The notes: generated by a model not told the origin, from the letters alone. A DNA stretch of 64,000 nucleotides from an uncultured Candidatus Saccharibacteria bacterium (GCA_964638585.1 CAZXAN010000003.1:30047-94046), one strand, 5' to 3'. Shown: positions 12,298-25,821, numbered from the stretch's first letter. Made by a program: numbers and translations.

Positions 12298-13398
12298 CTA
12301 TTCATCAAGCTTGCGGAGAGCGAGGCCAACAGCGACGGCAAATTCGGGACCGATATTTTCAAGAACCGAACGCATAAAGGCCGGTGCAGATGTCTTGGCA
12401 AATGGGTCGGCGACGCGCACGTCTATAGAGAAAATATTTTTTGCATACGCGCTGAGCTCTTTTGTCACACCACCACCACCTGTGAGGACAATAGAGGTTA
12501 TAGATTTTCTGTGCGCAGTCTCATACTGTATCAGGACACGACGCACCTCTGAGAAGATACGTGAGAAAACGAGTTCTGGAGAGCCGAGTGTACTCTCTCC
12601 GCCAATGCCCTCTTCTTTTTTCATAACCTCCGCTCGTGCAAGAGAGACGTTGCCAGATACTGAAATTGCGCGAGTGATATCTTGGCTCCCGATACTTATA
12701 GAATGAGAGAGAGCGACAACACCATGTTCTATAACATATGCCTTGGTTGAAGCCGCACCTACGTCAAGTATCATTACCGACTTAACAGGCTCGTCAATCG
12801 TCGCGCGAATAGTACTAAAGATCTCTATTTCGTAGAAACTCGCTAAGAGATTTGCGCCGGCGACAATGCTTTGAAGTTGAGAAAGTTCATCATTATGCAC
12901 AGCGACAAGAAGCACTTCAACTTTTTCTACAGAATCTGTCGTATCGCTGGCGGATTCTTTTGACTGTTTTGGTCCAGATTGAGGTACGATAAACCAGTCA
13001 AATTGCACTTCGCTCATAGGCACAGGGATATATTTGCGCGCTTCAAGCTCTATGACAGTCTTCTGTTCTTTTGGATCAGAACGATATGGCAATTCCACTA
13101 GAATAATCAAGGAGCGTGCGAACGGAATAGAAACACCGCAATTATTAGTTGTTACCTTAGATTCGCGCAAAAGATCCTTCAAAGTTTCGGTAATTTGTTC
13201 GGCAGACAGGTTGGTCGCCTGACCCACTTCACCGCCGCCGTATGGGCCAAGAGCTAGCTCGCCATAGGTCTCTAATACTGCCTGCCCCTTCTCCTTGCGC
13301 AATTGCACGACCTTAAGCGACGAAGAACCTATGTCTACGCCAAGAACGCTCTTTTCCTTTTTTGCGAATAAATTATTAAAGAAAGACATATTTACCAT
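12298..13398 (-). CDS. pilM: Type IV pilus assembly protein PilM (actin-like ATPase)
   Basis: VLGVDIGSSSLKVVQL... is an actin-fold N-terminus. The chosen start MVNMSFF avoids overlap with the divergent comFC gene. Confidence 0.85.
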   Translation of the reverse strand: MVNMSFFNNLFAKKEKSVLGVDIGSSSLKVVQLRKEKGQAVLETYGELALGPYGGGEVGQATNLSAEQITETLKDLLRESKVTTNNCGVSIPFARSLIILVELPYRSDPKEQKTVIELEARKYIPVPMSEVQFDWFIVPQSGPKQSKESASDTTDSVEKVEVLLVAVHNDELSQLQSIVAGANLLASFYEIEIFSTIRATIDEPVKSVMILDVGAASTKAYVIEHGVVALSHSISIGSQDITRAISVSGNVSLARAEVMKKEEGIGGESTLGSPELVFSRIFSEVRRVLIQYETAHRKSITSIVLTGGGGVTKELSAYAKNIFSIDVRVADPFAKTSAPAFMRSVLENIGPEFAVAVGLALRKLDE

Positions 13399-13406
13399 AT
13401 AATACC

Positions 13407-14042
13407 ATGATGAGGCTCTTTGATTTCTTATTCCCTCCTCGCGCAGATGAGATAGCTGTGCGCGACATTTCAATAGATGATTTTTTGGTAAAAGTCTCTC
13501 CAAGTCTAGTCACATGTACAAGACCTGCCACAATTACCTTGCTGCCATTCCACGATCCTGTTGTGCGTTCTGCTATACACGAAGCGAAGTACCACGGTAG
13601 CGCCCGAGCATTTGAACTGCTCGCTCTCGCTCTCGCCGACTATCTCCGCGATGCAGATGATGTTGGACGTACGACGTCCAACACATTCCTAATACCTGTG
13701 CCGTTGGGAAAAGAAAGAAGAAAAGAGCGTGGATATAATCAGATAGAAGAGGTGGCGAAGTTAGCTGGAAAAGAATTAGGGATGCAAGTAGAAACTGACT
13801 TACTCATCCGTACGCGCGAAACAATATCCCAGATTTCGCTTCCGCGCGAAGAACGGGAAAAGAATTTGCGTGGCGCATTCATTGTCTCGCCGAAGCTCGA
13901 AGAGCGGAGGCGGATCGATCCAACATGCACATACATATTAATAGATGACGTCATCACTACTGGCGCAACGCTCCAATCCGCCATTGATGCTCTTAAATCA
14001 GCCGGCGCGCTTCATATCATTCCGCTCGCCTTGGCTCACTAA
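13407..14042 (+). CDS. comFC: ComF family protein (phosphoribosyltransferase domain)
   Basis: C-terminal PRTase motif ILIDDVITTGATL. Divergent from pilM. Confidence 0.8.
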   Translation: MMRLFDFLFPPRADEIAVRDISIDDFLVKVSPSLVTCTRPATITLLPFHDPVVRSAIHEAKYHGSARAFELLALALADYLRDADDVGRTTSNTFLIPVPLGKERRKERGYNQIEEVAKLAGKELGMQVETDLLIRTRETISQISLPREEREKNLRGAFIVSPKLEERRRIDPTCTYILIDDVITTGATLQSAIDALKSAGALHIIPLALAH

Positions 14043-14063
14043 ATTTGATAAAGTACTTGCACA

Positions 14064-14153
14064 GGAGAGGTGGGTGAGTGGCTGAAACCAGCACGCTGCT
14101 AATGTGCCAGACCCGAAAGGGTCTCGAGGGTTCGAATCCCTCCCTCTCCGCCA
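14064..14153 (+). tRNA. tRNA-Ser (anticodon GCT)
   Basis: Acceptor GGAGAGG/CCTCTCC, anticodon stem GCACG/TGTGC with loop CTGCTAA, long variable arm, T-loop GGTTCGAATCC, discriminator G and encoded CCA. Confidence 0.9.
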
Positions 14154-14647
14154 TGACGAAACAAAAGAGCATATTGTTTGTATGTACTGGTAACGTGTTC
14201 AGAAGTGTTAGTGCCGAACAGTGCTTTAAAAAATACTTGTCTGATAACAATATTTCTGATTGGAAAGTCGGCTCTGCTGGCATTATTGCAGACGAAGCCT
14301 CTGTTGATCCAAAAATATTAGAAACTCTTAAGGAGCTTGGCATTGACAATGTTGTCTACCAGCAGAGAAAACTGACTCGCGAGATTCTTGAAGATTACGA
14401 CGTAATAGTCGGCATGGCAGAGAATCATATTGAATTTATGAAGTCAGAGTTTGGTTATAAATACGCGATCCTGTTCAACGAATTAGCATCAAACGAGAAA
14501 ACTTCAATTTGGGACATAGAGGACGAAATTCCTGATTATCTTACAAACCGATCTGCCGTAGAAGAAAAACTGGACCGTACCGTGAGAGAGATACACGATA
14601 AAATCCCATCACTGTTTAAAAATGTAAACGAACGTTTCTACAAATAG
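14153..14647 (+). CDS. Low-molecular-weight protein-tyrosine phosphatase / ArsC-like
   Basis: P-loop CTGNVFRS (CX5R) near the N-terminus (MTKQKSILFVCTGNVFRSVSAEQ). The upstream part of the raw ORF overlaps the tRNA and is discarded. Confidence 0.8.
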   Translation: MTKQKSILFVCTGNVFRSVSAEQCFKKYLSDNNISDWKVGSAGIIADEASVDPKILETLKELGIDNVVYQQRKLTREILEDYDVIVGMAENHIEFMKSEFGYKYAILFNELASNEKTSIWDIEDEIPDYLTNRSAVEEKLDRTVREIHDKIPSLFKNVNERFYK

Positions 14648-14668
14648 AACTGTTATAATCAGGAACAC

Positions 14669-15502
14669 ATGCGAGCTATTGCATTGCGCTCATTAAAGTA
14701 TCTGCTGATTTTTATCGGTGTTTTGGCGGTTGCATATGTCGTTCTAATTATCGCGATAAGACCGTCTCTTAGTCGCGACTGGACAAAAGATCAGATGATT
14801 CTTGCAAGAGCAGAGATAGCTGGAGATAAAGTAAGCATAACGAACATTCGTAATATTAATTACAGAACTACTAGCGACTATGACGTGCATTACTACGATA
14901 AAGAGTTTGATTTAAATAAATTGGAGTCTGTGTGGTATATGGTAGAACCATTTTCTGGACACGGAGCTGGCGCCGCACACACGCTACTATCATTTGGCTT
15001 TGAAGGTGGTGACTATGTAGCCGTATCAGTTGAGATACGTAAGGAGAAGGGAGAGTCCTTCTCCCCTATCAGTGGCATCTTGCGTCAATATGAGCTTGTC
15101 TACGTGATAGCAGATGAGAGAGACGTTATTAAACTACGCTCAAACTATCGTCACGATGACGTGTTTCTATATCCAGTGCAAACGACAAAAGAGAATATGC
15201 GTAAACTCTTTGTGTCTATGTTGCACCGCGCCAACAAACTAGCGACCGAGCCAGAGTTCTATAACACACTTACAAGCACATGTACTACAAATCTCGTGGC
15301 GCATGCCAACGAGATAGTGCCGGGCCGTATTCCATTTAGTTATAAAGTGTTAATGCCAGCATATTCAGACGAGTTGGCACACAAGATCGGGCTTATAGAC
15401 AACACTCTTTCTATAGAAGAAATGCGAGCGAAATATAAGATAAATGAACGTGCGCTTAAATATGCTGACGATCCGTTATTCTCTAAAATGATCAGAGAAT
15501 AG
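14669..15502 (+). CDS. DUF4105-family membrane-anchored protein
   Basis: N-terminal TM helix. Length and motifs (NTLTSTCTTNL) resemble the DUF4105/Lnb N-terminal domain. Confidence 0.55.
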   Translation: MRAIALRSLKYLLIFIGVLAVAYVVLIIAIRPSLSRDWTKDQMILARAEIAGDKVSITNIRNINYRTTSDYDVHYYDKEFDLNKLESVWYMVEPFSGHGAGAAHTLLSFGFEGGDYVAVSVEIRKEKGESFSPISGILRQYELVYVIADERDVIKLRSNYRHDDVFLYPVQTTKENMRKLFVSMLHRANKLATEPEFYNTLTSTCTTNLVAHANEIVPGRIPFSYKVLMPAYSDELAHKIGLIDNTLSIEEMRAKYKINERALKYADDPLFSKMIRE

Positions 15503-15508
15503 ATTCGC

Positions 15509-15554
15509 GCAGAAAAAGAAAACTGGCACCAAAGTGCCAGTTTTCTTTTTCTGC
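15509..15554. terminator. Bidirectional intrinsic terminator with a perfect 21-bp stem (GCAGAAAAAGAAAACTGGCAC/GTGCCAGTTTTCTTTTTCTGC)
   Basis: Sits between the convergent DUF4105 (+) and DUF378 (-) genes. Confidence 0.7.
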
Positions 15555-15575
15555 GTAAATTCGGGTTTGCCGAAT

Positions 15576-15809
15576 TTACATTCCAGAGCCAGAACCGCAG
15601 GCTTTGCAGTCACCCTTGTGTCCTACGGCAAGCACGACTGCTGATAGACCTACTAGCAAGTAGACAAGATTCTCAACTCCAGACCATGAGCCTAAGAGAA
15701 GATTGACTACGTTCCAATTGCTTCCCATCCAGTTACCTAGAGCATAGAGACCCCAGTTGAGGCCGCCGATAATAACTAGAACAAACGTGATTCCATGAAG
15801 TGATTTCAT
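15576..15809 (-). CDS. DUF378-family small membrane protein
   Basis: GGLNWGLYALGNW motif and two TM helices. Confidence 0.6.
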   Translation of the reverse strand: MKSLHGITFVLVIIGGLNWGLYALGNWMGSNWNVVNLLLGSWSGVENLVYLLVGLSAVVLAVGHKGDCKACGSGSGM

Positions 15810-15906
15810 GCAGATGAATAAGGTGGTTAAAGCGGGGATGTGTATCCGCTACCCTAAGTATGACGCATTTTGGCGCTGTCAAAAGACCCCCTGTGCAAAA
15901 CTCCTG

Positions 15907-16299
15907 TTACTGAAACTTGACCTGAAAGCTGTACATTCCCATAGAGCAAAGGCCCTGCAAAGTACCAGTCGCCTGTTCTGCAGATATATTGATATCTTCT
16001 GTACCAGACGATTTGAGGAATTTTTGATATGAGAGCTTAGGGATTACAAGACTCGCCGAGCAATCAAATGTGCCACTTGTGTTCACGCGAAGCACTGTTG
16101 GCACTCCTGCCTTTGCGAGCACGACACGCGGAGAATATCCGCCTTTTGCAGTTATATCTATAAACTGTTTGCCGTCTACGACCTGCGCAACAGGCTGACT
16201 GCCTGCAGTATCGTCATTTTTTGGGCCAGAAGATGCCCAAAATGCCCAGCCCACAAGCACTGTGGTGATTGCGATAGCTATGGCAACTTTTGTATCCAT
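15907..16299 (-). CDS. Cupredoxin-like domain protein (Cupredoxin_1 type)
   Basis: KGGYSP..V.AKAGVPTVLRV...SGTFDCS..LVIP...........GTLQGLCSMGMY matches the cupredoxin-like fold found next to copper ATPases. Confidence 0.6.
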   Translation of the reverse strand: MDTKVAIAIAITTVLVGWAFWASSGPKNDDTAGSQPVAQVVDGKQFIDITAKGGYSPRVVLAKAGVPTVLRVNTSGTFDCSASLVIPKLSYQKFLKSSGTEDINISAEQATGTLQGLCSMGMYSFQVKFQ

Positions 16300-16303
16300 A
16301 TTG

Positions 16304-17347
16304 TTAAAAATTAAATAACGGATTAATAATGCCGGCTGTGGCGAGAGCGTTTGTGAGATTCAAAAGCGCGAGAGCGATAACGATTATACCAGCAGTCTTG
16401 AAGAAGATACCCTTCCATGGCTTGTGTGCAATATTGAGGGAACCAAACGATAGAAGTGCGAGAACAGGCAGGGTGCCGAGCGCAAATACAAACATTGTCA
16501 TCGCTCCCTGCATAAAGTCGCCAGTAGATAGAGCGTAGATCTGCATAGACTGCGTGAATCCGCATGGTAAAAAGAATGTGCCTACGCCAACAAGAACTGG
16601 AGCAAGATAATGATCATGTTTACTGCCCTTTACCACGTGCTTGCCAAAGAAAGCTGGCAAAGTGAATTGCAATTTCTTCGTGAAGTGGAACACGTCAAGC
16701 AGGTTGACACCGAGAATTAGCATTACGAGAGCCACGATTACACCCAAGACGATATTTGCTGTAAGCCCTAGATGCATAGAGTTGCCCAAGAGGCCTACAG
16801 CCCCGCCGAGAACAAAGAACCCGACGATACGGCTTATGTGAAAGAGCGCGAGAGTGCGCCACGTGCCACCCTCTCTCGCAGAGCTCGCCGATAGCGAGAG
16901 CACAAGCCCACCGACTATTGCGAGACATGAGGAAACCGAGGCAATGAGGCCGATAATAAATGCTGTGCTGTAACTCACAGAACCGCCACCAATAAGATTG
17001 GTGAGGCCTGCCTTCTGTAACAGAATAAAACCTAAGATAATCACAACTGCGATTGGTAACGCATATGCAAAGTCGCCCCACCCGGCGTTATGCGCAACTT
17101 TTTCAACAGAAATAGTGTAGCCCTTATCGTGCACAAGCTTGGTCAACTCACTCGCAATTTGTTCAGGTGTTCCACCAAAGTCGCCTGTGACGGTGACTTG
17201 GTGAGTATCTAAAGACACCTTCACGCTCTTTATATGAGATTGTTCTGTGAGTATCTGCTCAATAAGCACCACGCAAGCGGCACAATGTGTGCCACTAACG
17301 TGAAATGTATATGTCTTTTGATTTGATTCAGGAGTCAGAACCGCCAT
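16304..17347 (-). CDS. HMA (heavy-metal-associated) domain fused to a polytopic DsbD_2/TauE-like membrane domain
   Basis: N-terminal HVSGTHCAACVVLIE metal-binding MxCxxC fold followed by 6-8 TM helices. Confidence 0.65.
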   Translation of the reverse strand: MAVLTPESNQKTYTFHVSGTHCAACVVLIEQILTEQSHIKSVKVSLDTHQVTVTGDFGGTPEQIASELTKLVHDKGYTISVEKVAHNAGWGDFAYALPIAVVIILGFILLQKAGLTNLIGGGSVSYSTAFIIGLIASVSSCLAIVGGLVLSLSASSAREGGTWRTLALFHISRIVGFFVLGGAVGLLGNSMHLGLTANIVLGVIVALVMLILGVNLLDVFHFTKKLQFTLPAFFGKHVVKGSKHDHYLAPVLVGVGTFFLPCGFTQSMQIYALSTGDFMQGAMTMFVFALGTLPVLALLSFGSLNIAHKPWKGIFFKTAGIIVIALALLNLTNALATAGIINPLFNF

Positions 17348-17366
17348 TCTACCATCTTTTTTTTAT

Positions 17367-17621
17367 TTACGCTTTGATTCTGTTAAATAGATACGCGAAC
17401 AGGCTGACGGCCAAGAGAGCAATCACGTTCCATATCACGAGACCGGAGACGAAAGTTGTGAGTGTCATGACATTTCCGCCCAAGTTCGTCGTCGTGTGCA
17501 GTGCATACAACATGAAAGTTGACCGAATGTTCGGAAACAGCAGTACGCCTACATAACAAACCGTCCACACAATGCTAATCCACGCGACCGTTACTTTCTG
17601 AATATGTTTTGTGTTAATCAT
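17367..17621 (-). CDS. Small hypothetical membrane protein
   Basis: 84 aa with 2-3 TM helices, inside the copper cluster. Confidence 0.4.
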   Translation of the reverse strand: MINTKHIQKVTVAWISIVWTVCYVGVLLFPNIRSTFMLYALHTTTNLGGNVMTLTTFVSGLVIWNVIALLAVSLFAYLFNRIKA

Positions 17622-17653
17622 ATAGATATTATATTACTTTTTAATAATTCTGT

Positions 17654-18571
17654 TTAGGCTGAACAGCCGCCACCACCCTGTACCTGTTCCGGTAGAGTGA
17701 CTTGAGAAGAAATGTTCTGGTAGCCGGATGAGCTGGAGTAAGGCGCGCTCAACATTTCTTGTGGGGACACATCTTTCCATGCTATCCCTTTATTTTTCAT
17801 ATACGTAGCGAGAGTAATGTATGTTTCTGGAAACCAATATGAATTTACAGCGAGAGCGACATTATACATCTCTTGTTCTCCAATACCCTGTGATGCCATG
17901 AGTTCCAAGAGGCCGAGCATCGCCATACCGTGATTGCAGTCCGGGAAGTGCGTGGAATTGCCGCAACACGGACGGAATATCCCACGAGATACGCGGTCTA
18001 CAAGCGTCTGTTGGTCGGCCGTAAGCGACACAAGCGCGTGTTTGTTGTAATGATTCATTGCATCGCCCTTCGCTAATGTCCACCCGCCTGTTGACGCGAA
18101 GTTCTCTGCTCCGCCGTATGACGGATTCATCATTTCTGATTTATCTTCGAGAATAGAGTTTTTGTTCGCGAGACCGAGCGCCCACAGGAGATTCAGAAAG
18201 TAGCCTGAATTTGAACTTGTGATAACTATTTTTTCACTGTTATTTTTTTCCAGCATTGTCTTATACGCTGGTGGGAATCCTCCGCGATCTTTATACAGGG
18301 CTTCAAGCTTTACTTTGTCAATTGCGCCAACTTCTACTAATTTTGCGCCAAGATCGCCCCATGATACTGGTAGTGTAACGCCATCACTCGGCAGAACTGA
18401 CTCCTGAAGTTGCGTTTGAGCTTTTGCATCTGCTGTGGTGTCTTTAGTTCTCTCTGTTGGACTATAATACAAAGCCATGGCGATAAATACACCAGCCGCG
18501 AGAATACTTATTGGCGTTGAGTACCCTTTTACGATACCTTCTATTGTTCTTTTTTTTGTTTCTGTTTCCAT
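17654..18571 (-). CDS. Membrane-anchored extracytoplasmic Cys/His-rich protein of unknown function
   Basis: N-terminal TM helix and a cluster RPCCGNSTHFPDCNHGMAML. It is co-directional with and tightly spaced among the copper/thiol-redox genes. Confidence 0.45.
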   Translation of the reverse strand: METETKKRTIEGIVKGYSTPISILAAGVFIAMALYYSPTERTKDTTADAKAQTQLQESVLPSDGVTLPVSWGDLGAKLVEVGAIDKVKLEALYKDRGGFPPAYKTMLEKNNSEKIVITSSNSGYFLNLLWALGLANKNSILEDKSEMMNPSYGGAENFASTGGWTLAKGDAMNHYNKHALVSLTADQQTLVDRVSRGIFRPCCGNSTHFPDCNHGMAMLGLLELMASQGIGEQEMYNVALAVNSYWFPETYITLATYMKNKGIAWKDVSPQEMLSAPYSSSSGYQNISSQVTLPEQVQGGGGCSA

Positions 18572-18584
18572 AATTTAATTTTAA

Positions 18585-19040
18585 TTAACAACAGCTCTCT
18601 TCCATTTTCTTTTCCAACTCGCTCTTTACTCCATTACCATTTTCGGTCTTTCGTAGCTGTGTCAATGTTATCAGAAGAAGGAATGCTATAGCGACAAGAA
18701 ACATTGTCCATAATTGTTCAAGAATCCCGTACATGGCCACAAATCCGACAGGAATGAACAACACTTTCCAGAATAGAATTCTGTTTGGAAATAGATTTTT
18801 GAATTTTTTCTCCAGTTGATATGCAACGCCGACTACTGTTCCACCCATAAGAAGTGCCGGGATTGTGAGGTCAACTTGGTAGCCGAAATTATATGCACCA
18901 AGAAGTCCGACCCACGTCAGAAACACTCCGGCGCATATAGGACAGATTGTGAACATCAGAAATTTATTCGCGAGCCACACCACTACCGAGACAGCTAGGA
19001 TTGAGATAATTGTGATAGTTATAAGCATATCTTTATACAA
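18585..19040 (-). CDS. Hypothetical polytopic membrane protein with a CPIC motif (possible DsbB-like thiol oxidoreductase partner)
   Basis: Four TM helices with CPICAGVF in TM2. It overlaps ccdA by 8 nt. Confidence 0.35.
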   Translation of the reverse strand: MYKDMLITITIISILAVSVVVWLANKFLMFTICPICAGVFLTWVGLLGAYNFGYQVDLTIPALLMGGTVVGVAYQLEKKFKNLFPNRILFWKVLFIPVGFVAMYGILEQLWTMFLVAIAFLLLITLTQLRKTENGNGVKSELEKKMEESCC

Positions 19041-19812
19041 CTAATATAAGCACGCCAATAAGAATCATCACGACGCCTGCGATTAAGCGCACGCGAGAGA
19101 GATTATTCAGTTTCCATCCCTGCATCTTATCCACGACTGCCTTATCGGCAGAAAACCACAAGACGAGCGCGAGTGGAATGATTAGAATGAAGTTGTAAAG
19201 GAATAGATACCAGAATCCTGTTACATAAGTCACCTGATCGCGGAGAAGTCCTATTACCATCAGATACGGACCGCCCATGCACGGGAACTGACAGATGCCG
19301 ACGAGCGCACCGAGTAGAAATGCAGCTATTATTGACGTCCTCTCCATAAGACGTGCCATCGGCGCGTGGACAAAGGACGGCAGAGCGAGCTTAATCGGGA
19401 CGTTCGGGAAGAATCGGTTTATAAGATTCACGATGCCAAAGATGACAAGAAGCGTCGCGCCGAGCTTCCCCATGAAGTGGGGCGTGTTGAAGATGTGCAA
19501 GACTTTTAGAATACCGAGGCCAATAAGAAGATACGATGCGAAAATGCCCGCAATGTAAACACCTCCGATTTGTAGTATCTTCTTTCGTGTCATTTGTAGA
19601 CCGAAGAGGAACGCGATTGTGATTAGAAGGATAGAGAACGAACACGGATGCACACTGTCTAGAAGCGATGAGATCAGCACGAGAGGTAAGAGCCACGCTC
19701 CACCCTGACTGATATTCCAGATAATGGAGGAAGTTACTGGAGAGAATTTAAGAATAATAATCCCCAGAATAAACACGCCAATAACGCTCGCAATAATAGT
19801 GAGACGCTTCAT
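19033..19812 (-). CDS. ccdA: Cytochrome c-type biogenesis/thiol-disulfide transporter CcdA (DsbD TM domain family)
   Basis: Polytopic protein with conserved Cys in TM1 (HPCSF) and TM4 (CQFPCMGGP). Confidence 0.7.
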   Translation of the reverse strand: MKRLTIIASVIGVFILGIIILKFSPVTSSIIWNISQGGAWLLPLVLISSLLDSVHPCSFSILLITIAFLFGLQMTRKKILQIGGVYIAGIFASYLLIGLGILKVLHIFNTPHFMGKLGATLLVIFGIVNLINRFFPNVPIKLALPSFVHAPMARLMERTSIIAAFLLGALVGICQFPCMGGPYLMVIGLLRDQVTYVTGFWYLFLYNFILIIPLALVLWFSADKAVVDKMQGWKLNNLSRVRLIAGVVMILIGVLILVV

Positions 19813-19814
19813 GG

Positions 19815-20333
19815 TTAAGGCGTTACGAGCGCCTTTATTTCAAGTTGAAGCGTACCACCCAACGTATCAGTGAGAGTTATGAACCTATCAATCCGACCGA
19901 CTCCTGCTGGACCGTGTGCATTCGGGTCATACACAACACGAACTGTGCGACTTTCGCCCGCCTTGATTAGTTCGTTGGCGGGCGGGACATAGCCCATGCC
20001 TGGCATTTTGAACGGTCCCTTGATATTTCCGTCTGGCAGAACAATAAAGGCAGATGTGCACATACAGGATGTAAGAACGGTGCTTACTTTTATATCTTCG
20101 CTCGTTGAATTATTCACAACAAACTCTTTAATCACGTTACCGTCTCTCATTGAGATTGTGCCGAAGTCGTAGAAGATTTCCGGCGCGGTGAGGACGCTTT
20201 TTGAAGTGCTTCTCGCTCCTGGAGCTCCTTGAACAGAGGCCGTTGTACTTCCCTTTCCTACATATCCCCAGACAAATAAGCCTACGAACACCAATAGAAC
20301 GACGCCGATACTTATACTAGTTTTTGATTCCAT
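19815..20333 (-). CDS. DUF1573 domain protein
   Basis: Membrane anchor plus a beta-rich domain carrying an SCMCT motif analogous to the DUF1573 SCGC signature. Confidence 0.6.
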   Translation of the reverse strand: MESKTSISIGVVLLVFVGLFVWGYVGKGSTTASVQGAPGARSTSKSVLTAPEIFYDFGTISMRDGNVIKEFVVNNSTSEDIKVSTVLTSCMCTSAFIVLPDGNIKGPFKMPGMGYVPPANELIKAGESRTVRVVYDPNAHGPAGVGRIDRFITLTDTLGGTLQLEIKALVTP

Positions 20334-20391
20334 AATAGTTAGAATTTAATAGAAATAAACTCATAGACAACGAATACGCTGTTCTTAACTA

Positions 20392-20778
20392 TTAGGATGG
20401 AGAATTTTCAAAAAGAGAAAGCCAGCGTTTTATTTTTCTATCTTGTGAAGTAAAAGGCGGAGAATTATATGAGATTGGAACGAATTGTTTGTATAAAAGT
20501 AGATGAAATGAAAATATTAAAATGATTACACTAACAAAAAGTAATGAGCTTACGAATAAACTCAACGGCACGTTGATAAACGACTGATATGCAGAAATAT
20601 GGTGAATGACTCCAGGCAAAACGTTCTGCGGGCACAGCGATACTCCAAACGAAAACGGACAGTCGCCCTGCATGCGTCCGTCAGCTCCATATGACATAGC
20701 GACGGAGCCAAAAAATGCCACCAGCAAAAACGACAATACCAGAGATGTCGTAGTGATTTTCTTAAACATAGGTTGCAT
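20392..20778 (-). CDS. Hypothetical secreted/membrane protein
   Basis: Signal peptide, then DCPFSFGVSLCP and HHISAY motifs and a C-terminal TM helix. Lies immediately downstream of copA. Confidence 0.4.
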   Translation of the reverse strand: MQPMFKKITTTSLVLSFLLVAFFGSVAMSYGADGRMQGDCPFSFGVSLCPQNVLPGVIHHISAYQSFINVPLSLFVSSLLFVSVIILIFSFHLLLYKQFVPISYNSPPFTSQDRKIKRWLSLFENSPS

Positions 20779-20787
20779 ATTTGTATG

Positions 20788-23124
20788 TTATAACTCTTTT
20801 GCCTTAAGACGAAGCGAGTTAGAGACCACAGAGACGCTTGAGAGAGCCATCGCGAGACCAGCGAAGACTGGCGAGAGTAGCCAGCCGAATACTGGATAGA
20901 ATACCCCGCCGGCGAGCGGTATGCCAACAATGTTATAGAAGAACGCCCAGAAAAGATTCTGTTTAATTCCTCTCATGGTTAATTTAGAAAGTCTCACGGC
21001 TTTCACGAGTTTAGATATGTCGCCATGGAGGAGTGTGATGCCGGCGCTCTCTATCGCGACGTCCGTTCCTGTTGCCATGGCGATGCCGACGTCCGCCTGT
21101 GCGAGCGCAGGAGCATCGTTAACGCCATCTCCTGCCATCGCAACAATCATTCCCTGCTTTTGCAACTCTTTAATTTTATTTAGTTTGTCCTCTGGCATCA
21201 CCTCTGCGACAACGTCATCAATGCCGACTTGGTCTGCGATATATCGCGCCGTGTTCTTATTATCTCCGGTGAGCATCACTATCTTTATTCCTAACGCATG
21301 CAAGTCTCTCACAGCATGCACAGCTTCTGGCTTTATCGCATCAGCAACCATTGCCACCGCGAGAACATTATCATCTTCTACGAGAATAACTGGCGTCTTA
21401 CCTTCTATCGTATCTTTTTCAAGAGACTCCGGTAACTTGGGGGTTGAACCCCCAAGTTGCTCACCAGCGAGTTTGACGCTCCCAACATGATACTGAACGC
21501 CGTCTATCTTGCCAGTAATCCCCTTCCCTTTCAGCATTTCAAAATTTTCTACAGGTACGAACTCTATGTTTTTTTCTTTTGCATACGCAATCACTGCATG
21601 AGCAATTGGGTGTTCTGACTTATTCTCAAGAGATGCAAGAATCGCAATTATTTCAGCATCACTTTTATCTGAATAATTTTTAAGGGAGACGAGCTCCGGC
21701 TTCCCTCTCGTCAGAGTTCCAGTTTTATCTACGACGACCACGTCCACCTTGTGCAACTTCTCAAGCGTCGCCGCATCTTTGACCAGAATCCCCTCCTTCG
21801 CTCCCTTGCCGACGCCGACGATTATCGCAGTTGGCGTCGCGAGACCGAGCGCACATGGGCAAGCGATAACCAAGATGCTAACAAAAGATACAAGACCATA
21901 AGATAGAGCCTGGGCGAATCCTAGATACTGCGAGCCTACGATAAGCCATGCACCAAGCGCAACAAAAGCTATAACTAAAACAATGGGCACAAAGACGCCC
22001 GAGATTTTATCTGCTAAAGCTTGTATGGGCGCTCTGCTCCCCTGCGCCTCTTCTACCATCTTCACAATATGCGCGAGCATCGTCTCCGAGCCTACTTTTG
22101 TTGCTTTAAAAGTAAACGAGCCCGACGTGTTAATTGTGCCTGCGATCACAGAATCGCCAACCTCTTTCTTCACAGGCATCGGCTCGCCAGATATCATAGA
22201 CTCGTCCACGTGTGACGAACCATCTACTAAGACACCGTCGACTGGGATCTTCCCTGCTGGCTTCACGATAATCAGGTCGCCATGCACTACCTTATCAATT
22301 GGAATTTCTAATTCTTTGCCATCGCGTATCACGAGTGCCGTCTTCGCCTGCATATTCAAGAGCTTCTCTATCGCATCCCCTGTCTTTACCTTCGCTCGCG
22401 CCTCCAGATATTTACCAAGCGCGATAAAAGTTATGACGATAATAGTCACGTCATAATATGTGGCATCTACGTTAATAAACGGTCGTAAACTATCTTCAAA
22501 GGCTGTGACAGCAAAGCTATAGACATAGGCAGCCAACGTCCCAAGCCCAATAAGCGTGTCCATATTCGCCTTGCCATACCGCAAGAATCTATAAAAGCCA
22601 AGCAGATACGGCTTGCCAACTACGAACAGCACGTAAGTCGCCATCAAGGGCAGCAAGTGGTGGAAAAATTCTTTCCAAAAAGTAGACATTTCTGGAGCGG
22701 TCCCAAATTGTGCGAGAATCTCCCACGTCAGAATAAACGCGCTGATAACAGATAGAGGGATTGCAGACATAACCATCGTGCGCATGTCCGCGATCTCTGC
22801 TAATTTATCTGCCTTAGACTGATTAAGACCTAGGTGTCCTGCGTGTTCGCTCTCTGACATCCCCATCTCACTTGCGCTGAGCGAGGCCGAAGTGGACGAA
22901 GTCGGCATTGGGTCAGCAATAATTAAAGAATATCCAAGCGGTTCTATTTTTTTAGAAAGCTCTTTCGGATTCGTCTTCGCAGAGTCGTATGAAATCTTCG
23001 CGGCTTCAGTTCCAGGATTCACTTCTATCGAGTGCACGCCGTCAACCTTTTTAAAAGTCTTTTCTATAATGCTCGCACAACTCGCACAGTGCATTCCTTT
23101 AATCTTGTATGTTTCTGTTTTCAT
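20788..23124 (-). CDS. copA: Copper-translocating P1B-type ATPase
   Basis: N-terminal HMA (GMHCASCASIIEKT), CPC motif in TM6 (ACPCALGLATP), DKTGTLT phosphorylation site and GDGVNDAPAL. Confidence 0.95.
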   Translation of the reverse strand: MKTETYKIKGMHCASCASIIEKTFKKVDGVHSIEVNPGTEAAKISYDSAKTNPKELSKKIEPLGYSLIIADPMPTSSTSASLSASEMGMSESEHAGHLGLNQSKADKLAEIADMRTMVMSAIPLSVISAFILTWEILAQFGTAPEMSTFWKEFFHHLLPLMATYVLFVVGKPYLLGFYRFLRYGKANMDTLIGLGTLAAYVYSFAVTAFEDSLRPFINVDATYYDVTIIVITFIALGKYLEARAKVKTGDAIEKLLNMQAKTALVIRDGKELEIPIDKVVHGDLIIVKPAGKIPVDGVLVDGSSHVDESMISGEPMPVKKEVGDSVIAGTINTSGSFTFKATKVGSETMLAHIVKMVEEAQGSRAPIQALADKISGVFVPIVLVIAFVALGAWLIVGSQYLGFAQALSYGLVSFVSILVIACPCALGLATPTAIIVGVGKGAKEGILVKDAATLEKLHKVDVVVVDKTGTLTRGKPELVSLKNYSDKSDAEIIAILASLENKSEHPIAHAVIAYAKEKNIEFVPVENFEMLKGKGITGKIDGVQYHVGSVKLAGEQLGGSTPKLPESLEKDTIEGKTPVILVEDDNVLAVAMVADAIKPEAVHAVRDLHALGIKIVMLTGDNKNTARYIADQVGIDDVVAEVMPEDKLNKIKELQKQGMIVAMAGDGVNDAPALAQADVGIAMATGTDVAIESAGITLLHGDISKLVKAVRLSKLTMRGIKQNLFWAFFYNIVGIPLAGGVFYPVFGWLLSPVFAGLAMALSSVSVVSNSLRLKAKEL

Positions 23125-23139
23125 AGAATTTTTGTATTT

Positions 23140-23165
23140 CCTAGTGCCTAGAGCCTAACGCCTAT
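23140..23165. repeat. CTAG-heptamer repeat (CCTAGTGCCTAGAGCCTAACGCCTAT)
   Basis: Shares the 17-mer TAGGCTCTAGGCACTAG (as reverse complement) with 4187-4203. Overlaps the csoR stop codon. Confidence 0.75.
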
Positions 23166-23437
23166 TTCCGCTTCAGCTTATAGACCTTCAGCACTTCATT
23201 TACTGCCTTACTACTCTGCCCCGATGTCATCTGCTCGTGTACGCAACCCTTCAGGTGATTCTCCATCAAGAGATCTTCAACAGTTGAGAGTGCCGCCTTC
23301 ACTGCTGACGTCTGCGCGATAACGTCAATACAATATGTATCCTTCTCTATCATCATGGCGAGACCGCGCACCTGTCCCTCAATAATCTTCAACCTTTTGG
23401 CTATTTTCGCGTCCTCTGTTTTATCTCCGTGTTTCAT
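23162..23437 (-). CDS. csoR: CsoR/RcnR-family metal-sensing transcriptional repressor
   Basis: 91-aa DUF156 protein with the conserved C...H...C metal site (YCIDV...HLKGC). First gene of the copA cluster. Confidence 0.85.
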   Translation of the reverse strand: MKHGDKTEDAKIAKRLKIIEGQVRGLAMMIEKDTYCIDVIAQTSAVKAALSTVEDLLMENHLKGCVHEQMTSGQSSKAVNEVLKVYKLKRK

Positions 23438-23448
23438 CCCCCTATCCT

Positions 23449-23465
23449 ATACCCCCTAGGGGTAT
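23449..23465. promoter_or_regulatory. Putative CsoR operator: GC-tract palindrome ATACCCCCTAGGGGTAT between a -35-like TTGACG and -10-like TAGGAT
   Basis: Near-perfect inverted repeat 12 nt upstream of the csoR ATG. CsoR operators are typically AT-flanked G/C-tract palindromes. Confidence 0.65.
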
Positions 23466-23493
23466 CCGTCAAGTGTAGTTGTGGATATGTGAA

Positions 23494-23527
23494 AGGGCGG
23501 GACATCATGTCCCGCCCTGTGTTTTCC
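23494..23527. terminator. Hairpin GGGCGGGACAT/ATGTCCCGCCC followed by GTGTTTTCC
   Basis: Perfect 11-bp stem. The T-run is on the + strand and only a weak U-run exists on the minus strand, so the strand assignment is uncertain. Confidence 0.5.
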
Positions 23528-23734
23528 GATTATCTTGGTTTTAGGATTAATCGGCAACCCCTAGTGCTTTGATTCCGAGTGAGTTTCGCCTCTCACTATC
23601 CCTCATTTAATTTATAACGCGCAGAGAGAGCTGCGCTATCGTTCAATCATCGCTACTAGGCTCCATTTTGTGGTTTACGCGGCTCTGGTCGAGGGTTTTT
23701 ATTTTCGTGAGAACCTAATAACTCACGTTGCGGT

Positions 23735-24076
23735 TCAGACGAACCGCGTCCTGACCGGCGCTTTCGCGTGCTGGCAGGAGTTGCCGTGGATGGTGGCCAA
23801 ATACGCTGCCATAATCCCACGCGGCACCATGCCCAACGGCATGTTACGCATCGTCTTGACCAAATTCCCACGTTGACTGACGCGGGTGAACTCAACGTCA
23901 GCGAACTCTTTTTTTGCAACCGGGCGCTCGGCTCTGCCGAGAAACGCGGCAAGAATGAGCTCACGGTTGGCCGCATCGTCCCCGTCGTTCTTCTTCACGA
24001 CGCGGATGACTCGTGGCGTAAACCCAGCCGCGACCAACTCTGCGATTGTCATGTCAAACACGTTTTTTCCGTTCAT
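23735..24076 (-). CDS. Hypothetical 113-aa protein, compositionally foreign (GC-rich, SD-preceded)
   Basis: An AAAGGAGAA SD lies 6 nt upstream, a TTGACA-N16-TATACT promoter lies upstream, and third codon positions are G/C-skewed, unlike neighbouring genes. Confidence 0.5.
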   Translation of the reverse strand: MNGKNVFDMTIAELVAAGFTPRVIRVVKKNDGDDAANRELILAAFLGRAERPVAKKEFADVEFTRVSQRGNLVKTMRNMPLGMVPRGIMAAYLATIHGNSCQHAKAPVRTRFV

Positions 24077-24140
24077 TGTGTTCTCCTTTTCGAGTGAACT
24101 TCGAACATGCGCATTTCTGCGCGCTTTATTACCTTCTGTA

Positions 24141-24168
24141 AGTATACACGAATAGCTGTATTTGTCAA
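24141..24168 (-). promoter_or_regulatory. Sigma70-like promoter TTGACAaata-N16-TATACT for the 113-aa ORF
   Basis: On the minus strand: TTGACAAATACAGCTATTCGTGTATACT. Confidence 0.55.
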
Positions 24169-24217
24169 TAGCTTTGGGACACCCGCCCAGAAACGCAATA
24201 AATACGACCTATTTTGG

Positions 24218-24236
24218 AACAAGGTTAAACCTTGTT
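24218..24236. repeat. Perfect 19-bp palindrome AACAAGGTTAAACCTTGTT overlapping the AbiEii stop codon
   Basis: 9-bp arms. No U-run follows on the minus strand, so it may be a protein-binding site rather than a terminator. Confidence 0.5.
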
Positions 24237-24912
24237 ATTCTAATATGATTTTGTTGACTACTTGAGGCACTTCTTTTATAAAATAGTCCTTTGCTTCTTT
24301 CCAGCTTGCTTCAAAGAAAATCTCTGGGGCAGGATCACTCTCGGCATCTTCAAAATAGACCAGACTTTTTAAGATATGGTGATAGTCATGGGCCACAAAA
24401 GGATACTGCTCTTTCACTCTTTTCATTAAATTCTCCAATGACTCTATATTCTTTGCGCACCAGTACAGGTCAAAGAAATCGCGCTTCCGCCCGCGTTGCG
24501 AAATGGCGATTATTTTCATAACGGCGATATCCAGCGGCTGTAGAATTTTTATTGAACCGTATTGAATAAAACTTTGATTGGGGACAAAGAACGGATAGGC
24601 AATAAAACTTATTTTGGCCTTAAAGAGTTCGCCATATACTGTATTTTTAGTATTTATGGTCGTCTCCCATTCGTTATTTCCTAAAAAATTTGTGAGTAGT
24701 TCAGATGTATCAAAGTCTGTTGCTGTTGTGAAAAAGTCCAAGTCTACTGACTTGCGATTCCCTACTTGCAGAGCTAGAGCTGTGCCACCAGCAAGATACC
24801 AATCACCTTCTGCGAGCCACGGTTGTTCAGATAAAAAACCAAACGCCTTTTTTGTTGCTACCGGTATTATACTAAAATTTGACTCTATTTGTTCTCTAGA
24901 AGCAGTGTCCAT
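24235..24912 (-). CDS. Nucleotidyltransferase AbiEii/AbiGii-like toxin (DUF1814 family)
   Basis: GGTALALQVGNRKSVDLDFF motif and 225-aa length are typical of type IV TA / abortive-infection NTases. Confidence 0.7.
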   Translation of the reverse strand: MDTASREQIESNFSIIPVATKKAFGFLSEQPWLAEGDWYLAGGTALALQVGNRKSVDLDFFTTATDFDTSELLTNFLGNNEWETTINTKNTVYGELFKAKISFIAYPFFVPNQSFIQYGSIKILQPLDIAVMKIIAISQRGRKRDFFDLYWCAKNIESLENLMKRVKEQYPFVAHDYHHILKSLVYFEDAESDPAPEIFFEASWKEAKDYFIKEVPQVVNKIILE

Positions 24913-25124
24913 AAATTTTTTGTTTGTGGCATTATCGAGCGCGATTTAGCGACCGTGCTTTTTAGTAGCGACTTGTCATAAAAATGATAGAGCCACTTCA
25001 CTTCGCTGTCATTGCCAAAGTCTAAAACTCTCTCAATAATGTATTGAGCATTTTTATCTGTGTCTATCTTCTCTGGATTCGTATCCCAGAATAAAGATTG
25101 TCTGAGCTTCATTACATTCTGCAT
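24885..25124 (-). CDS. Small upstream partner of the AbiEii-like NTase (putative antitoxin, family not recognised)
   Basis: 80 aa from MQNVMKLRQ. Its 3' end overlaps the NTase start by 28 nt, and the raw ORF's longer N-terminus would overlap the ABC ATPase gene. Confidence 0.45.
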   Translation of the reverse strand: MQNVMKLRQSLFWDTNPEKIDTDKNAQYIIERVLDFGNDSEVKWLYHFYDKSLLKSTVAKSRSIMPQTKNLWTLLLENK

Positions 25125-25131
25125 GCTCCAA

Positions 25132-25821
25132 TTATACCATACTTGCGCTCGTTGTTTTGATGATTTTGCCGTCGTCCAGAGTAAGGATGCGGTCAGCGAA
25201 TGAGGCATATTCGTCTTCGTGAGTCACCATAATAATAGTCTGACCTGATTTATGGAGTTCTTTAAAAAGATTCATGACGCGTGATGATGACTCGCGGTCC
25301 AGATTCGCTGTCGGCTCGTCTGCGAAGAGGATGCTTGGCTTATGCGCGATAGCACGTGACACAGACACGCGCTGTTGTTCACCTCCCGAGAGCTGACTCG
25401 GCAAGTTTTTAAGACGATTGCCGAGACCCACTTTCTCAAGCGCAGTACTAGCCTTTTCTTCTGCTACCAAACGCGAAGCCCCCTGCATAATGAGTGGGAG
25501 CGATACATTCTCTATCGCCGTTAGCTCCGGCAGAAGTGCATAATCTTGGAAGACGTAGCCAAATTCTTCTAGCCTAAACACCATCTTTTCTCTTTCGCTC
25601 ATCGCGTGCGCCTCTTTACCATTAATTAAGATCTCGCCTGATGTCGCTTCATCCAGAAGCGACATCTGATAAAGAAGAGTACTCTTCCCCGCTCCCGAGC
25701 GTCCCATAATTGCTACAAACTCGCCCTGCTTAGCGGTAAAGCTAATTCCCTTAAGCACGGTCGTAACATTTGGGCCGTCCTTAAAACTTTTTATTAGATT
25801 TTTAACTTCTATTGTATTCAT
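25132..25821 (-). CDS. ABC transporter ATP-binding protein (MacB/LolD/FtsE-like)
   Basis: Walker A GRSGAGKST, signature LSGGEQQRVSVSRA, Walker B ILFADEPT. Confidence 0.9.
   Translation of the reverse strand: MNTIEVKNLIKSFKDGPNVTTVLKGISFTAKQGEFVAIMGRSGAGKSTLLYQMSLLDEATSGEILINGKEAHAMSEREKMVFRLEEFGYVFQDYALLPELTAIENVSLPLIMQGASRLVAEEKASTALEKVGLGNRLKNLPSQLSGGEQQRVSVSRAIAHKPSILFADEPTANLDRESSSRVMNLFKELHKSGQTIIMVTHEDEYASFADRILTLDDGKIIKTTSASMV

Follow-up and report, generated by a model that had tools for sequence, protein, structure and literature searches.

A CsoR-headed candidate copper-defence operon and its conserved accessory genes in Patescibacteria

We describe a cluster of 11 co-directional genes on the minus strand (23437 to 15576) of a 64,000-nucleotide stretch of DNA from an uncultured bacterium (GCA_964638585.1 CAZXAN010000003.1:30047-94046), hereafter the window, whose genome is that of a member of the Patescibacteria of the Kaiserbacteria/Paceibacteria type. 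Judged from its sequence and its relatives, the cluster is a real and widely conserved copper-defence operon of the very small bacteria of the candidate phyla radiation (CPR), in which sensor and pump are accompanied by membrane and surface proteins with many Cys, His and Met residues, several of them from undescribed families. It is headed by csoR and copA, which by sequence are a textbook pair of Cu(I)-sensing repressor and Cu(I) pump, and the core of CsoR, operator and CopA is already known. New, as far as the searchable literature shows, is a conserved extension that consists of p128, DUF1573 or a redoxin together with a CcdA-like protein, p151 or c6, p305, and an HMA-DsbD_2 protein with a CupA-like cupredoxin. 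Literature searches on DUF1573, DsbD_2, PCYCGC, and Parcubacteria or CPR together with copper returned no description of the cluster, in agreement with an earlier note on this DNA, which had held that the combination is not a standard described cop operon. We think it probable, if well short of certain, that the system serves Cu(I)-induced efflux together with copper and thiol handling at the cell surface, by analogy with the Scs and CueP systems. The observations behind this reading are the gene order, the gene families, the conservation of ligands, the identity and conservation of the operator, synteny and gene fusions.

Genes were called from a listing of open reading frames (ORFs) and from profile scans (Pfam, NCBIfam) of the window proteins. 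The listing confirms that all the genes named in the earlier note lie on the minus strand in the order it gave: csoR, copA, p128, DUF1573, p259, p151, p305, DUF5676, HMA-DsbD_2, cupredoxin and DUF378. The profile annotation that it proposed for each ORF gave matches for csoR, copA, DUF1573, DUF5676, HMA-DsbD_2, cupredoxin and DUF378.

The part of the model that is well supported, on sequence grounds, is a Cu(I) pump whose expression would be gated by CsoR and switched on by Cu(I). The 91-residue CsoR (23162-23437) matches PF02583 at 2e-24, with 86.1 bits against a gathering score of 22.8, and the RicR/CsoR model of NCBIfam at 1.6e-21. Its translation contains Y35, C36, H61, C65 and E81, which we take to be the Cu(I) ligands and second-shell residues in the numbering of M. 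tuberculosis CsoR; C36 and H61 are 100% conserved among 43 sequences. The 778-residue CopA (20788-23124) scores 600.5 bits with TIGR01511 against a cut-off of 397. Its motifs (CPC422, DKTGT466, YN730 and MALSS759) are those of a P1B-1 Cu(I)-exporting ATPase, and its N-terminus carries a single HMA domain with GMHCASC at position 10.

A promoter scan found a sigma-70-like csoR promoter on the minus strand (23444-23472), in which TTGACG (23467-23472) and TAGGAT (23444-23449) are separated by 17 nt. The spacer is filled by the 17-mer ATACCCCCTAGGGGTAT (23449-23465), a candidate CsoR operator in which TAC, G/C tracts and GTA form a pseudopalindrome, and which lies between the -35 and -10 boxes just as the earlier note had stated. 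ATACCCCCTAGGGGTAT fits the streptomycete type-2 consensus ATATACCCCTNAGGGGTATAT, and is the sole match in the 64 kb even with three mismatches allowed, where 0.09 would be expected by chance. The same 17-mer is contained in the S. lividans copZA1 operator duplex, for which CsoR binding has been shown by isothermal titration calorimetry (PMC3902906). At least 29 of 42 related csoR promoters carry the TACC...GGTA pseudopalindrome as well, flanked there by a -35 box of TTGAC and a -10 box of the TATA type. Family scores, the operator match and conservation thus bear out the proposal of a single-strand cluster that is headed by csoR-copA and has a CsoR operator inside its promoter. At low copper, CsoR on the TAC-G/C-tract-GTA pseudopalindrome would block RNA polymerase; Cu(I) at C36/H61/C65 would free CsoR from the operator, and CopA would pump cytoplasmic Cu(I) out. 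The operator and promoter are simple enough for an immediate in vitro test.

The -10 box ends only 6 nt upstream of the csoR ATG, and the csoR transcript may therefore be leaderless. Many of the related csoR promoters have a like spacing (TATACT, 6-9 nt, ATG). No GGAGG-type Shine-Dalgarno sequence precedes any of the 11 cluster genes, which suggests leaderless or Shine-Dalgarno-independent translation in this lineage.

In these respects the window resembles the known CsoR-CopA(-CopZ) operons, such as B. subtilis copZA, L. monocytogenes csoR-copA-copZ and S. lividans csoR/copZA. These share the C-H-C family of CsoR, the TAC/G-C-tract/GTA operator, its overlap with the promoter and the P1B-1 pump downstream. 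However, the window has no separate CopZ gene, eight or nine further genes belong to its unit, and at least three of its families (p128, p151 and p305) are without a Pfam or PDB relative.

The extension recurs across many genomes. In a scan of one genome per GTDB species, at least 586 stretches encode a p305 relative. Relatives of p305 come from Kaiserbacteria, Paceibacterota and other Patescibacteria. The conservation counts rest on the best 80 loci, nearly all labelled Patescibacteria, in which the ORFs within 9.5 kb of p305 were clustered all-against-all; a full-flank subset comprises the 31 loci, all labelled Patescibacteria, with at least 7 kb on both sides. Among the 80 loci p259 is found in 70, p128 in 63, copA in 60, DUF1573 in 53, csoR in 42, HMA-DsbD_2 with cupredoxin in 34 and p151 in 22. 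In the full-flank loci p305 lies within about 9.5 kb of copA in 30 of 31, of p259 and of p128 in 28 each, and of csoR in 23, while DUF1573 or a peroxiredoxin-like redoxin is near p305 in all 31. The recurrent order is csoR, copA, p128, DUF1573, p259, c6 and/or p151, p305 and, where present, HMA-DsbD_2 and cupredoxin. Synteny of this extent across the Patescibacteria shows that the association is selected rather than accidental; within these loci the families do occur together, a point that the earlier note had wished to see checked.

In one of the 80 loci a p305 that is 76% identical to that of the window lies in a Patescibacteria-type cluster on a contig binned as Ignavibacteriaceae (JALNWB010000120.1, L006), probably by mis-binning and possibly by horizontal transfer. 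The related loci also have optional companions, none of them in the window: SHOCT-domain small membrane proteins (36 loci), DUF2933-like proteins (21), DUF5643 (17), DUF302 (17) and ICMT-family methyltransferases (15). The DUF2933-like companions are rich in His and Met, and a representative ends in GCCH.

Could the accessory genes form a general envelope thiol or oxidative-stress system, comparable to streptococcal CcdA-Etrx-MsrAB, that merely neighbours csoR-copA? CcdA-like plus redoxin modules carry out oxidative-stress repair in Firmicutes (PMC7034828), pneumococcal Etrx is among the best PDB matches of the redoxin variant described below, and the window has an internal promoter-like site. 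Against this, the linkage to copA is near-universal (30/31) across deeply diverged lineages, persists after rearrangements and is found in distant relatives too, and one p305 relative is fused to a blue-copper cupredoxin. Moreover, the recurrent companions (CupA-like cupredoxin, HMA domains, DUF2933, SHOCT) are ones that typify copper loci, and in the window no terminator separates copA from the genes behind it, which are spaced by 9-58 nt. We therefore regard a stress system that is independent of copper as improbable.

Under the favoured reading of copper efflux with surface handling, two of the accessory genes form a first pair, the DUF1573 protein (19815-20333) and p259 (19033-19812; 259 aa). 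The DUF1573 protein scores 34.8 bits with PF07610 (cut-off 26.1). It combines an N-terminal anchor with a PapD-like, Ig-type beta-sandwich, for which the AlphaFold 2 (AF2) model has a predicted local distance difference test score (pLDDT) of about 95. Its profile found nothing meaningful among PDB sequences; by structure, in Foldseek, the domain resembles PapD-like/ASH folds and P. gingivalis 2QSV. Its invariant or near-invariant residues (at least 98%) are C90-M91-C92, M62, M110 and H140, and a selenocysteine form (UGC) of DUF1573 has been catalogued (PMC9312934). In one related locus (L044) a 517-residue ORF upstream of p305 is a DUF1573 domain fused to an N-terminal, beta-propeller-like repeat region of about 350 residues.

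The label 'ccdA' that p259 had first been given stands in part. HPC57, C174xxPC178 and an NTPHFM motif are invariant in 51 sequences, and HPC57 and FPC178 are the two Pro-Cys motifs expected of CcdA, a third Cys also being invariant. Relatives of p259 are named CcdA by NCBI, three of nine orthologues match DsbD_TM at 1.8e-5, and four match SfLAP (2.4e-8). In NCBIfam, DsbD is reached at E = 0.6 and the best match is the ArsG efflux permease at 3.8e-6. Aligned with the HMA-DsbD_2 protein by hhalign, p259 is collinear and its cysteines fall on C141 and C262, at a non-significant probability of 1.5%. What did not hold is the match of the protein itself to the Pfam model or to a PDB entry. The family call is thus a weak one, and p259 is best regarded as a putative divergent two-Cys CcdA-like membrane protein of the DsbD/LysE superfamily.

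The neighbours of p259 suggest what its partner may be. In 17 loci a membrane-anchored AhpC/TSA redoxin stands beside p259 in the place of DUF1573, with PDB matches to Bcp peroxiredoxins, pneumococcal Etrx and ResA. DUF1573 and the redoxin occur together in a single locus (L026), and this locus has two p259 genes, each with its own partner. Elsewhere, a CcmH::DUF1573 fusion is found. From the swap, the pairing and the fusion we argue that DUF1573 is probably the extracytoplasmic partner of p259. A Sco-type copper chaperone was considered for the redoxin, which has CxxxC and a His, and was dropped, its PDB relatives being Bcp, Etrx and ResA, with no Sco.

This arrangement is similar to the CcdA-Etrx/ResA/TlpA pathways, which share a six-transmembrane (six-TM) protein with a Pro-Cys in each half and a gene beside it for a membrane-anchored extracytoplasmic partner, the partner being a redoxin in related loci also. 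The window p259 differs in that it misses DsbD_TM, and also in three additions: one more TM helix at the N-terminus, a third Cys that is invariant, and a His/Met motif. Furthermore, its partner is DUF1573, with CxC on an Ig fold, and the window and the related loci examined are without a cytochrome c that needs maturation.

These differences bear on a second alternative, in which p259, HMA-DsbD_2 and p151 move a thiophilic metal itself, Cu(I) and possibly Ag, Au or Hg, through paired cysteines and with no electron transfer. The HMA domain and the CC tails would then serve for cytoplasmic hand-off, and DUF1573, p305 and the cupredoxin would be the outer acceptors. MerT and MerF have membrane Cys pairs and Cys-bearing cytoplasmic tails. 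The window proteins parallel them in the Cys pairs in or at the edge of TM helices, the Cys-bearing cytoplasmic tails and the HMA fusion, which recalls the HMA hand-off of MerT/MerF/MerP. The third invariant Cys of p259, the invariant His and Met of its NTPHFM motif and its best NCBIfam match, ArsG rather than DsbD, are consistent with such a relay, as is the resemblance of an intramembrane CPxC to the CPx metal site of P1B ATPases. On the other hand, no sequence relationship to the Mer proteins was detected, the HMA domain is cytoplasmic, there is no reductase, and the regulator is copper-specific. In the redoxin-type loci p259 is accompanied by a thiol oxidoreductase of the peroxiredoxin/TlpA-like kind, which is the classic partner of CcdA, and the CcmH::DUF1573 fusion likewise points to thiol-redox chemistry. 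Finally, a second, ATP-independent copper exporter beside CopA is without precedent. On balance a pure metal relay seems quite unlikely, and we continue with reductant-supported copper handling as the preferred reading.

A second pair is formed by the HMA-DsbD_2 fusion (16304-17347) and the cupredoxin (15907-16299). In the former an HMA domain with a CxxC, predicted to be cytoplasmic, precedes a six-TM domain in which C141 and C262 are invariant, and the protein passes both gathering scores (PF13386, 3e-30, 106.2 bits against 24.9; PF00403, 7e-12, 46.0 against 24.8). Its family, COG2836, has previously been inferred to belong to the CsoR meta-regulon (PMC4938975). The latter is a Cupredoxin_1 protein (PF13473, 30.5 bits against a cut-off of 27) whose best PDB match is S. 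pneumoniae CupA (4F2E/2MRY; 23 bits, E = 5e-4). Its C80 and C118-x-M120-x-M122 align with C74 and C111-x-M113-x-M115 of CupA, the ligand roles of which are known (PMC5646241), and C80, C118, M120 and M122 are invariant in 26 sequences. By fold, anchor and ligands, this membrane-anchored cupredoxin is CupA-like and a putative Cu(I) chaperone. The CopY-CupA-CopA operon of S. pneumoniae is alike in having a membrane-anchored cupredoxin, the Cys and CxMxM of a binuclear Cu(I) site, and a place in a copper-efflux operon. However, the match is one of 23 bits, the window cupredoxin is paired with HMA-DsbD_2 and does not lie beside CopA, and the window CopA has a classical HMA domain instead of a cupredoxin metal-binding domain.

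Three further proteins lack a known family. The first, p128 (20392-20778; 128 aa), has no Pfam match and belongs to no known family. It has two TM helices, a loop predicted to face outward with C40, C49 and H59-H60, and a conserved tail, WLxLxENSP, predicted to be cytoplasmic. The second, p151 (18585-19040, with an alternative ATG start at 19028; 151 aa), is without a match in Pfam or NCBIfam. It has five TM helices, one of which bears the CPIC at its end, and its C-terminal tail closes with CC (...KKMKDCC); C33, C36 and C150 are invariant. The CPIC comes after a run of basic residues where its helix begins, the CC comes after a Lys/Arg-rich segment, and in a fusion described below (P0369) the CC tail stands directly ahead of the p305 anchor helix. 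Both Cys motifs are therefore predicted to face the cytoplasm. The suggestion that this CPIC protein is DsbB-like is therefore not supported, given the lack of a family match and motifs predicted to be cytoplasmic rather than extracytoplasmic.

In 44 of the 80 loci a soluble, helical 164-residue family without a Pfam match, c6, stands between p259 and p305 (for example L048:9488-9982 and L056:9465-9959); it is absent from the window. It has a near-invariant GETWC, and the sequences read end in ...KLADCCxE, which echoes the CC tail of p151. The two use one slot.

The third protein, p305 (17654-18571; 305 aa), consists of an N-terminal anchor and a mostly helical domain of about 250 residues (AF2 pLDDT 69.5, predicted template modelling score 0.72). 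It has no Pfam match and no PDB relative in sequence or fold. C202, C203, C212, H214, H174 and H178, together with C303 in a flexible GGGCSA tail, are invariant or conserved to at least 98%; with several Met included, the level is still at least 95%. An exhaustive HMMER search gathers the family into 687 clusters at 50% identity. Fusions are informative on its surroundings. In one protein (P0369) p151 is fused directly to p305, so that the CC tail abuts the p305 anchor helix, a junction that would place the p305 domain outside the cell. At least 12 representatives begin with a four-to-five-TM domain that contains GCPxCG...P.GLE.K and is joined to p305 through a TM helix; several of these CPxC::p305 fusions carry a cytoplasmic Cys pair (e.g. 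CxxC) between the CPxC domain and the TM helix. In another (P0504) p305 is fused to a type-1 (blue-copper) cupredoxin. Two candidate kinships were examined with hhalign. The PCCG...DC motif of p305 has no similarity to the PCYCGC domain (PF13798), and this idea was dropped. The similarity of p151 to the CPxC domain of the long p305 proteins (E = 0.002, probability 14%, 43 columns) is taken as a shared motif rather than as homology.

The gene contexts of distant p305 relatives are again copper-related. One locus (L086) has a CopB-like ATPase, a small protein, a CPxC::p305 fusion, a CuA-motif cupredoxin, a rhodanese, Ferric_reduct and an FNR-like protein. A second (L088) has SHOCT, CPxC::p305, three DUF1573 genes, PCYCGC, a CuA-motif cupredoxin, a NosR-like protein and COX2-cytochrome c, with a P-type ATPase nearby. 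In a third (L091) csoR, DUF1573, two ORFs without annotation (one of 276 aa, a p259-like size, and one of 195 aa) and CPxC::p305 face a convergent HMBD ATPase. The CopB-type ATPase of the first locus (L086:6488-12948) has a CPH motif and a His-rich N-terminus, and the Ferric_reduct and FNR-like NAD-binding pair there is a possible NAD(P)H-driven trans-membrane electron chain.

These contexts raise a third alternative, that the genes mature a cuproprotein and do not detoxify copper. An assembly line of ATPase, p128, DUF1573, p305 and DsbD-type proteins would reduce the cysteines of a membrane-anchored, binuclear-thiolate cupredoxin, CupA-like in the window and CuA-like in other loci, and charge it with copper; the closest parallel would be the TlpA/Sco/PCuAC/CcoI route for CuA and cbb3 oxidases. 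The cupredoxins downstream of distant p305 relatives have the full CuA motif (CSVPCGAGHVGM, CSVACGSLHPFM), and neighbours include Ferric_reduct with FNR-like, NosR/NapH-like Fer4_5, COX2-cytochrome c and rhodanese proteins. The fusion of a p305 domain to a type-1 cupredoxin, and the HMA-DsbD_2-cupredoxin pair that accompanies p305 in 34 of 80 loci, would also fit. However, most loci do not have this pair (12/31 with full flanks), and the window cupredoxin has the ligands of a CupA-type chaperone without the His ligands of CuA or type-1 sites. A CsoR repressor at the head of the operon implies expression at excess copper, which is the logic of detoxification, and Parcubacteria are generally without respiratory chains that could use such a protein (PMC4508563). 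Cuproprotein maturation is therefore an unlikely account of the window, and copper defence remains our preferred reading.

How might the accessory proteins act in copper defence? Invariant Cys, Met or His is found in every one of them. The most economical model, by analogy, is the reception of copper by outward Cys/Met/His proteins that are served by two DsbD-type reducers. The cell has no outer membrane, and at its surface p128, DUF1573, p305 and the CupA-like cupredoxin, all membrane-anchored and predicted to face outward, would catch the exported copper, buffer it or hand it on. Reducing equivalents, though possibly Cu(I) itself, would cross the membrane through the two DsbD-superfamily two-Cys proteins, with p259 as the counterpart of DUF1573 and HMA-DsbD_2 as that of the cupredoxin. 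This supply would keep the surface thiol sites reduced despite copper-catalysed oxidation, and p151 would be the cytoplasmic-face partner of p305. Copper induction, topology and the biochemical roles of all accessory proteins are what we infer here. The earlier note had likewise proposed that copper export is coupled with disulfide or reductant transfer; DsbD-superfamily and uncharacterised metal-motif proteins agree with this, and its DsbB-like part falls away.

A coupling of DsbD-type reductant supply to copper tolerance is established for the Scs system and CueP (PMC10907172, PMC4546943). The systems of Salmonella, Proteus and Caulobacter can be likened to the window as copper-induced sets in which a DsbD-type transporter feeds Cu(I)-binding envelope proteins. 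There, the envelope proteins repair or prevent copper-driven thiol oxidation, and CueP, a Cys-rich copper-binding client, is maintained in its reduced state. The window resembles these systems in function only. Family scans of the window found no ScsB, ScsC or ScsD homologue and no thioredoxin-fold protein; the partners are the Ig-like DUF1573 and p305, the host is a monoderm-type CPR bacterium, and the regulator is CsoR instead of CueR or CpxR.

Several points weigh against this reading. The window p259 has no Pfam match even at E = 10, DsbD_TM (PF02683) included, and its profile gave nothing meaningful among PDB sequences, with no CcdA or DsbD match. The thioredoxin-fold partner usual for such proteins is not encoded in the window by family scans, and DUF1573 takes its position. 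The model of p305 is of medium quality and matches no known fold, and the orientation of p305 and of the cupredoxin is read from charge distribution and fusion architecture. Selenocysteine variants and CxC motifs suit electron transfer and Cu(I) transfer alike, and the sequence of the Cys relays thus fits either. An internal promoter-like site ahead of DUF5676 (TAAACA, 17 nt, TATAAT; 17628-17656, minus strand) could free the last three or four genes from copper control. It has 10 of 12 matches and ends 6 nt ahead of the DUF5676 ATG, but the total of promoter-like sites in the region is not above that of shuffled sequence, and the site is only a lead.

A wider proposal can be made tentatively, and we consider it doubtful as it stands. 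p305 and its CPxC partner, either p151 or the fused four-to-five-TM domain, may be an unrecognised trans-envelope copper-handling module, in which a cytoplasmic tetra-Cys site is coupled to an outward CC...C-x-H domain with a swinging C-terminal Cys and feeds Cu(I) or reductant to CupA- or CuA-like cupredoxins that are anchored in the membrane and have binuclear thiolate sites. The CcdA-like protein and DUF1573 would be an Ig-fold alternative to thioredoxin-fold envelope reductases, and the whole would be a copper pathway typical of Patescibacteria, with relatives found in other settings too.

These results give a copper context to at least three orphan families, one of them, p305, with relatives in at least 586 of the genomes scanned, and to DUF1573 and HMA-DsbD_2 proteins as well. 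Patescibacterial genomes are of about 1 Mb or less and many keep a cluster of about 8 kb, which points to strong selection for copper handling at a surface without an outer membrane. The results also provide testable ideas on how monoderms without a multicopper oxidase or Cus handle exported Cu(I), and on whether an Ig-fold CxC protein can stand in for the thioredoxin-fold partners of CcdA.

The boundaries of the unit are marked by hairpins. Upstream of the csoR promoter a GC-rich hairpin with an 11-bp stem (23494-23518, minus strand) is probably the terminator of the preceding unit and the 5' limit of the operon; the 56-nt segment that holds it (23480-23535) has a folding energy of -23.6 kcal/mol. 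Downstream, the cluster ends at a bidirectional intrinsic terminator between convergent genes (15509-15554, both strands), with a perfect stem of the 21 bp that the earlier note had given, a 4-nt loop and an A-tract/GC core/T-tract. It has the features of a Rho-independent terminator, namely a GC-cored hairpin and a T-rich 3' arm at the end of the unit, and with an adjoining 10-bp hairpin its joint folding energy is -47.9 kcal/mol. The T-run is contained in the stem, which is probably why a simple terminator scanner missed it. Rfam matches in 15000-24500 were sub-threshold and confined to the terminator hairpin, with no riboswitch or small RNA. The GC profile is uniform, without an island signature, and exact copies of the region are present on ENA and Logan metagenome contigs.

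The intergenic gaps range from -8 to 58 nt, with 97 nt ahead of DUF378, and the range of 0-60 nt first given was thus slightly wrong. The csoR-copA spacer (23125-23165) consists of four TAGGCNN copies that begin at the csoR stop codon and thereby put TAG stops in all three frames. The repeat that had been noted here does exist; it is absent from 23 other csoR-copA spacers, and is therefore lineage-specific noise and not a feature of the system.

Two small membrane proteins complete the cluster. The DUF5676 protein (17367-17621; PF18926, 2e-10) has two TM helices and conserved H6, C22, M37 and H42, and tblastn with the window protein found it in 9 of the 80 loci. The DUF378 protein (15576-15809; PF04070, 1e-11) has a C-terminal CxxC (C68, C71) conserved in seven aligned sequences, those of the window and six relatives. 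It occurs in 6 of the 80 loci at scattered positions, and the 97-nt gap ahead of it (15809-15907) holds TTGACA, 16 nt and TACTTA; DUF378 may have its own promoter and still share the operon terminator. On these grounds it is probably a passenger outside the copper system, and its inclusion as a cluster member was not upheld.

On the same strand, upstream of the cluster (23735-25821), lie a 113-residue orphan ORF, an AbiEii toxin with a DUF6922 partner and an ABC ATPase; the AbiEii and DUF6922 genes overlap and are likely a toxin-antitoxin pair. Downstream (12298-15502) are genes for an Lnb_N-domain protein, a low-molecular-weight phosphatase, a ComF-like phosphoribosyltransferase and PilM. One contig with an exact copy of the region (L001) runs on into further type IV pilus genes, a typical surface-appendage locus of Patescibacteria.

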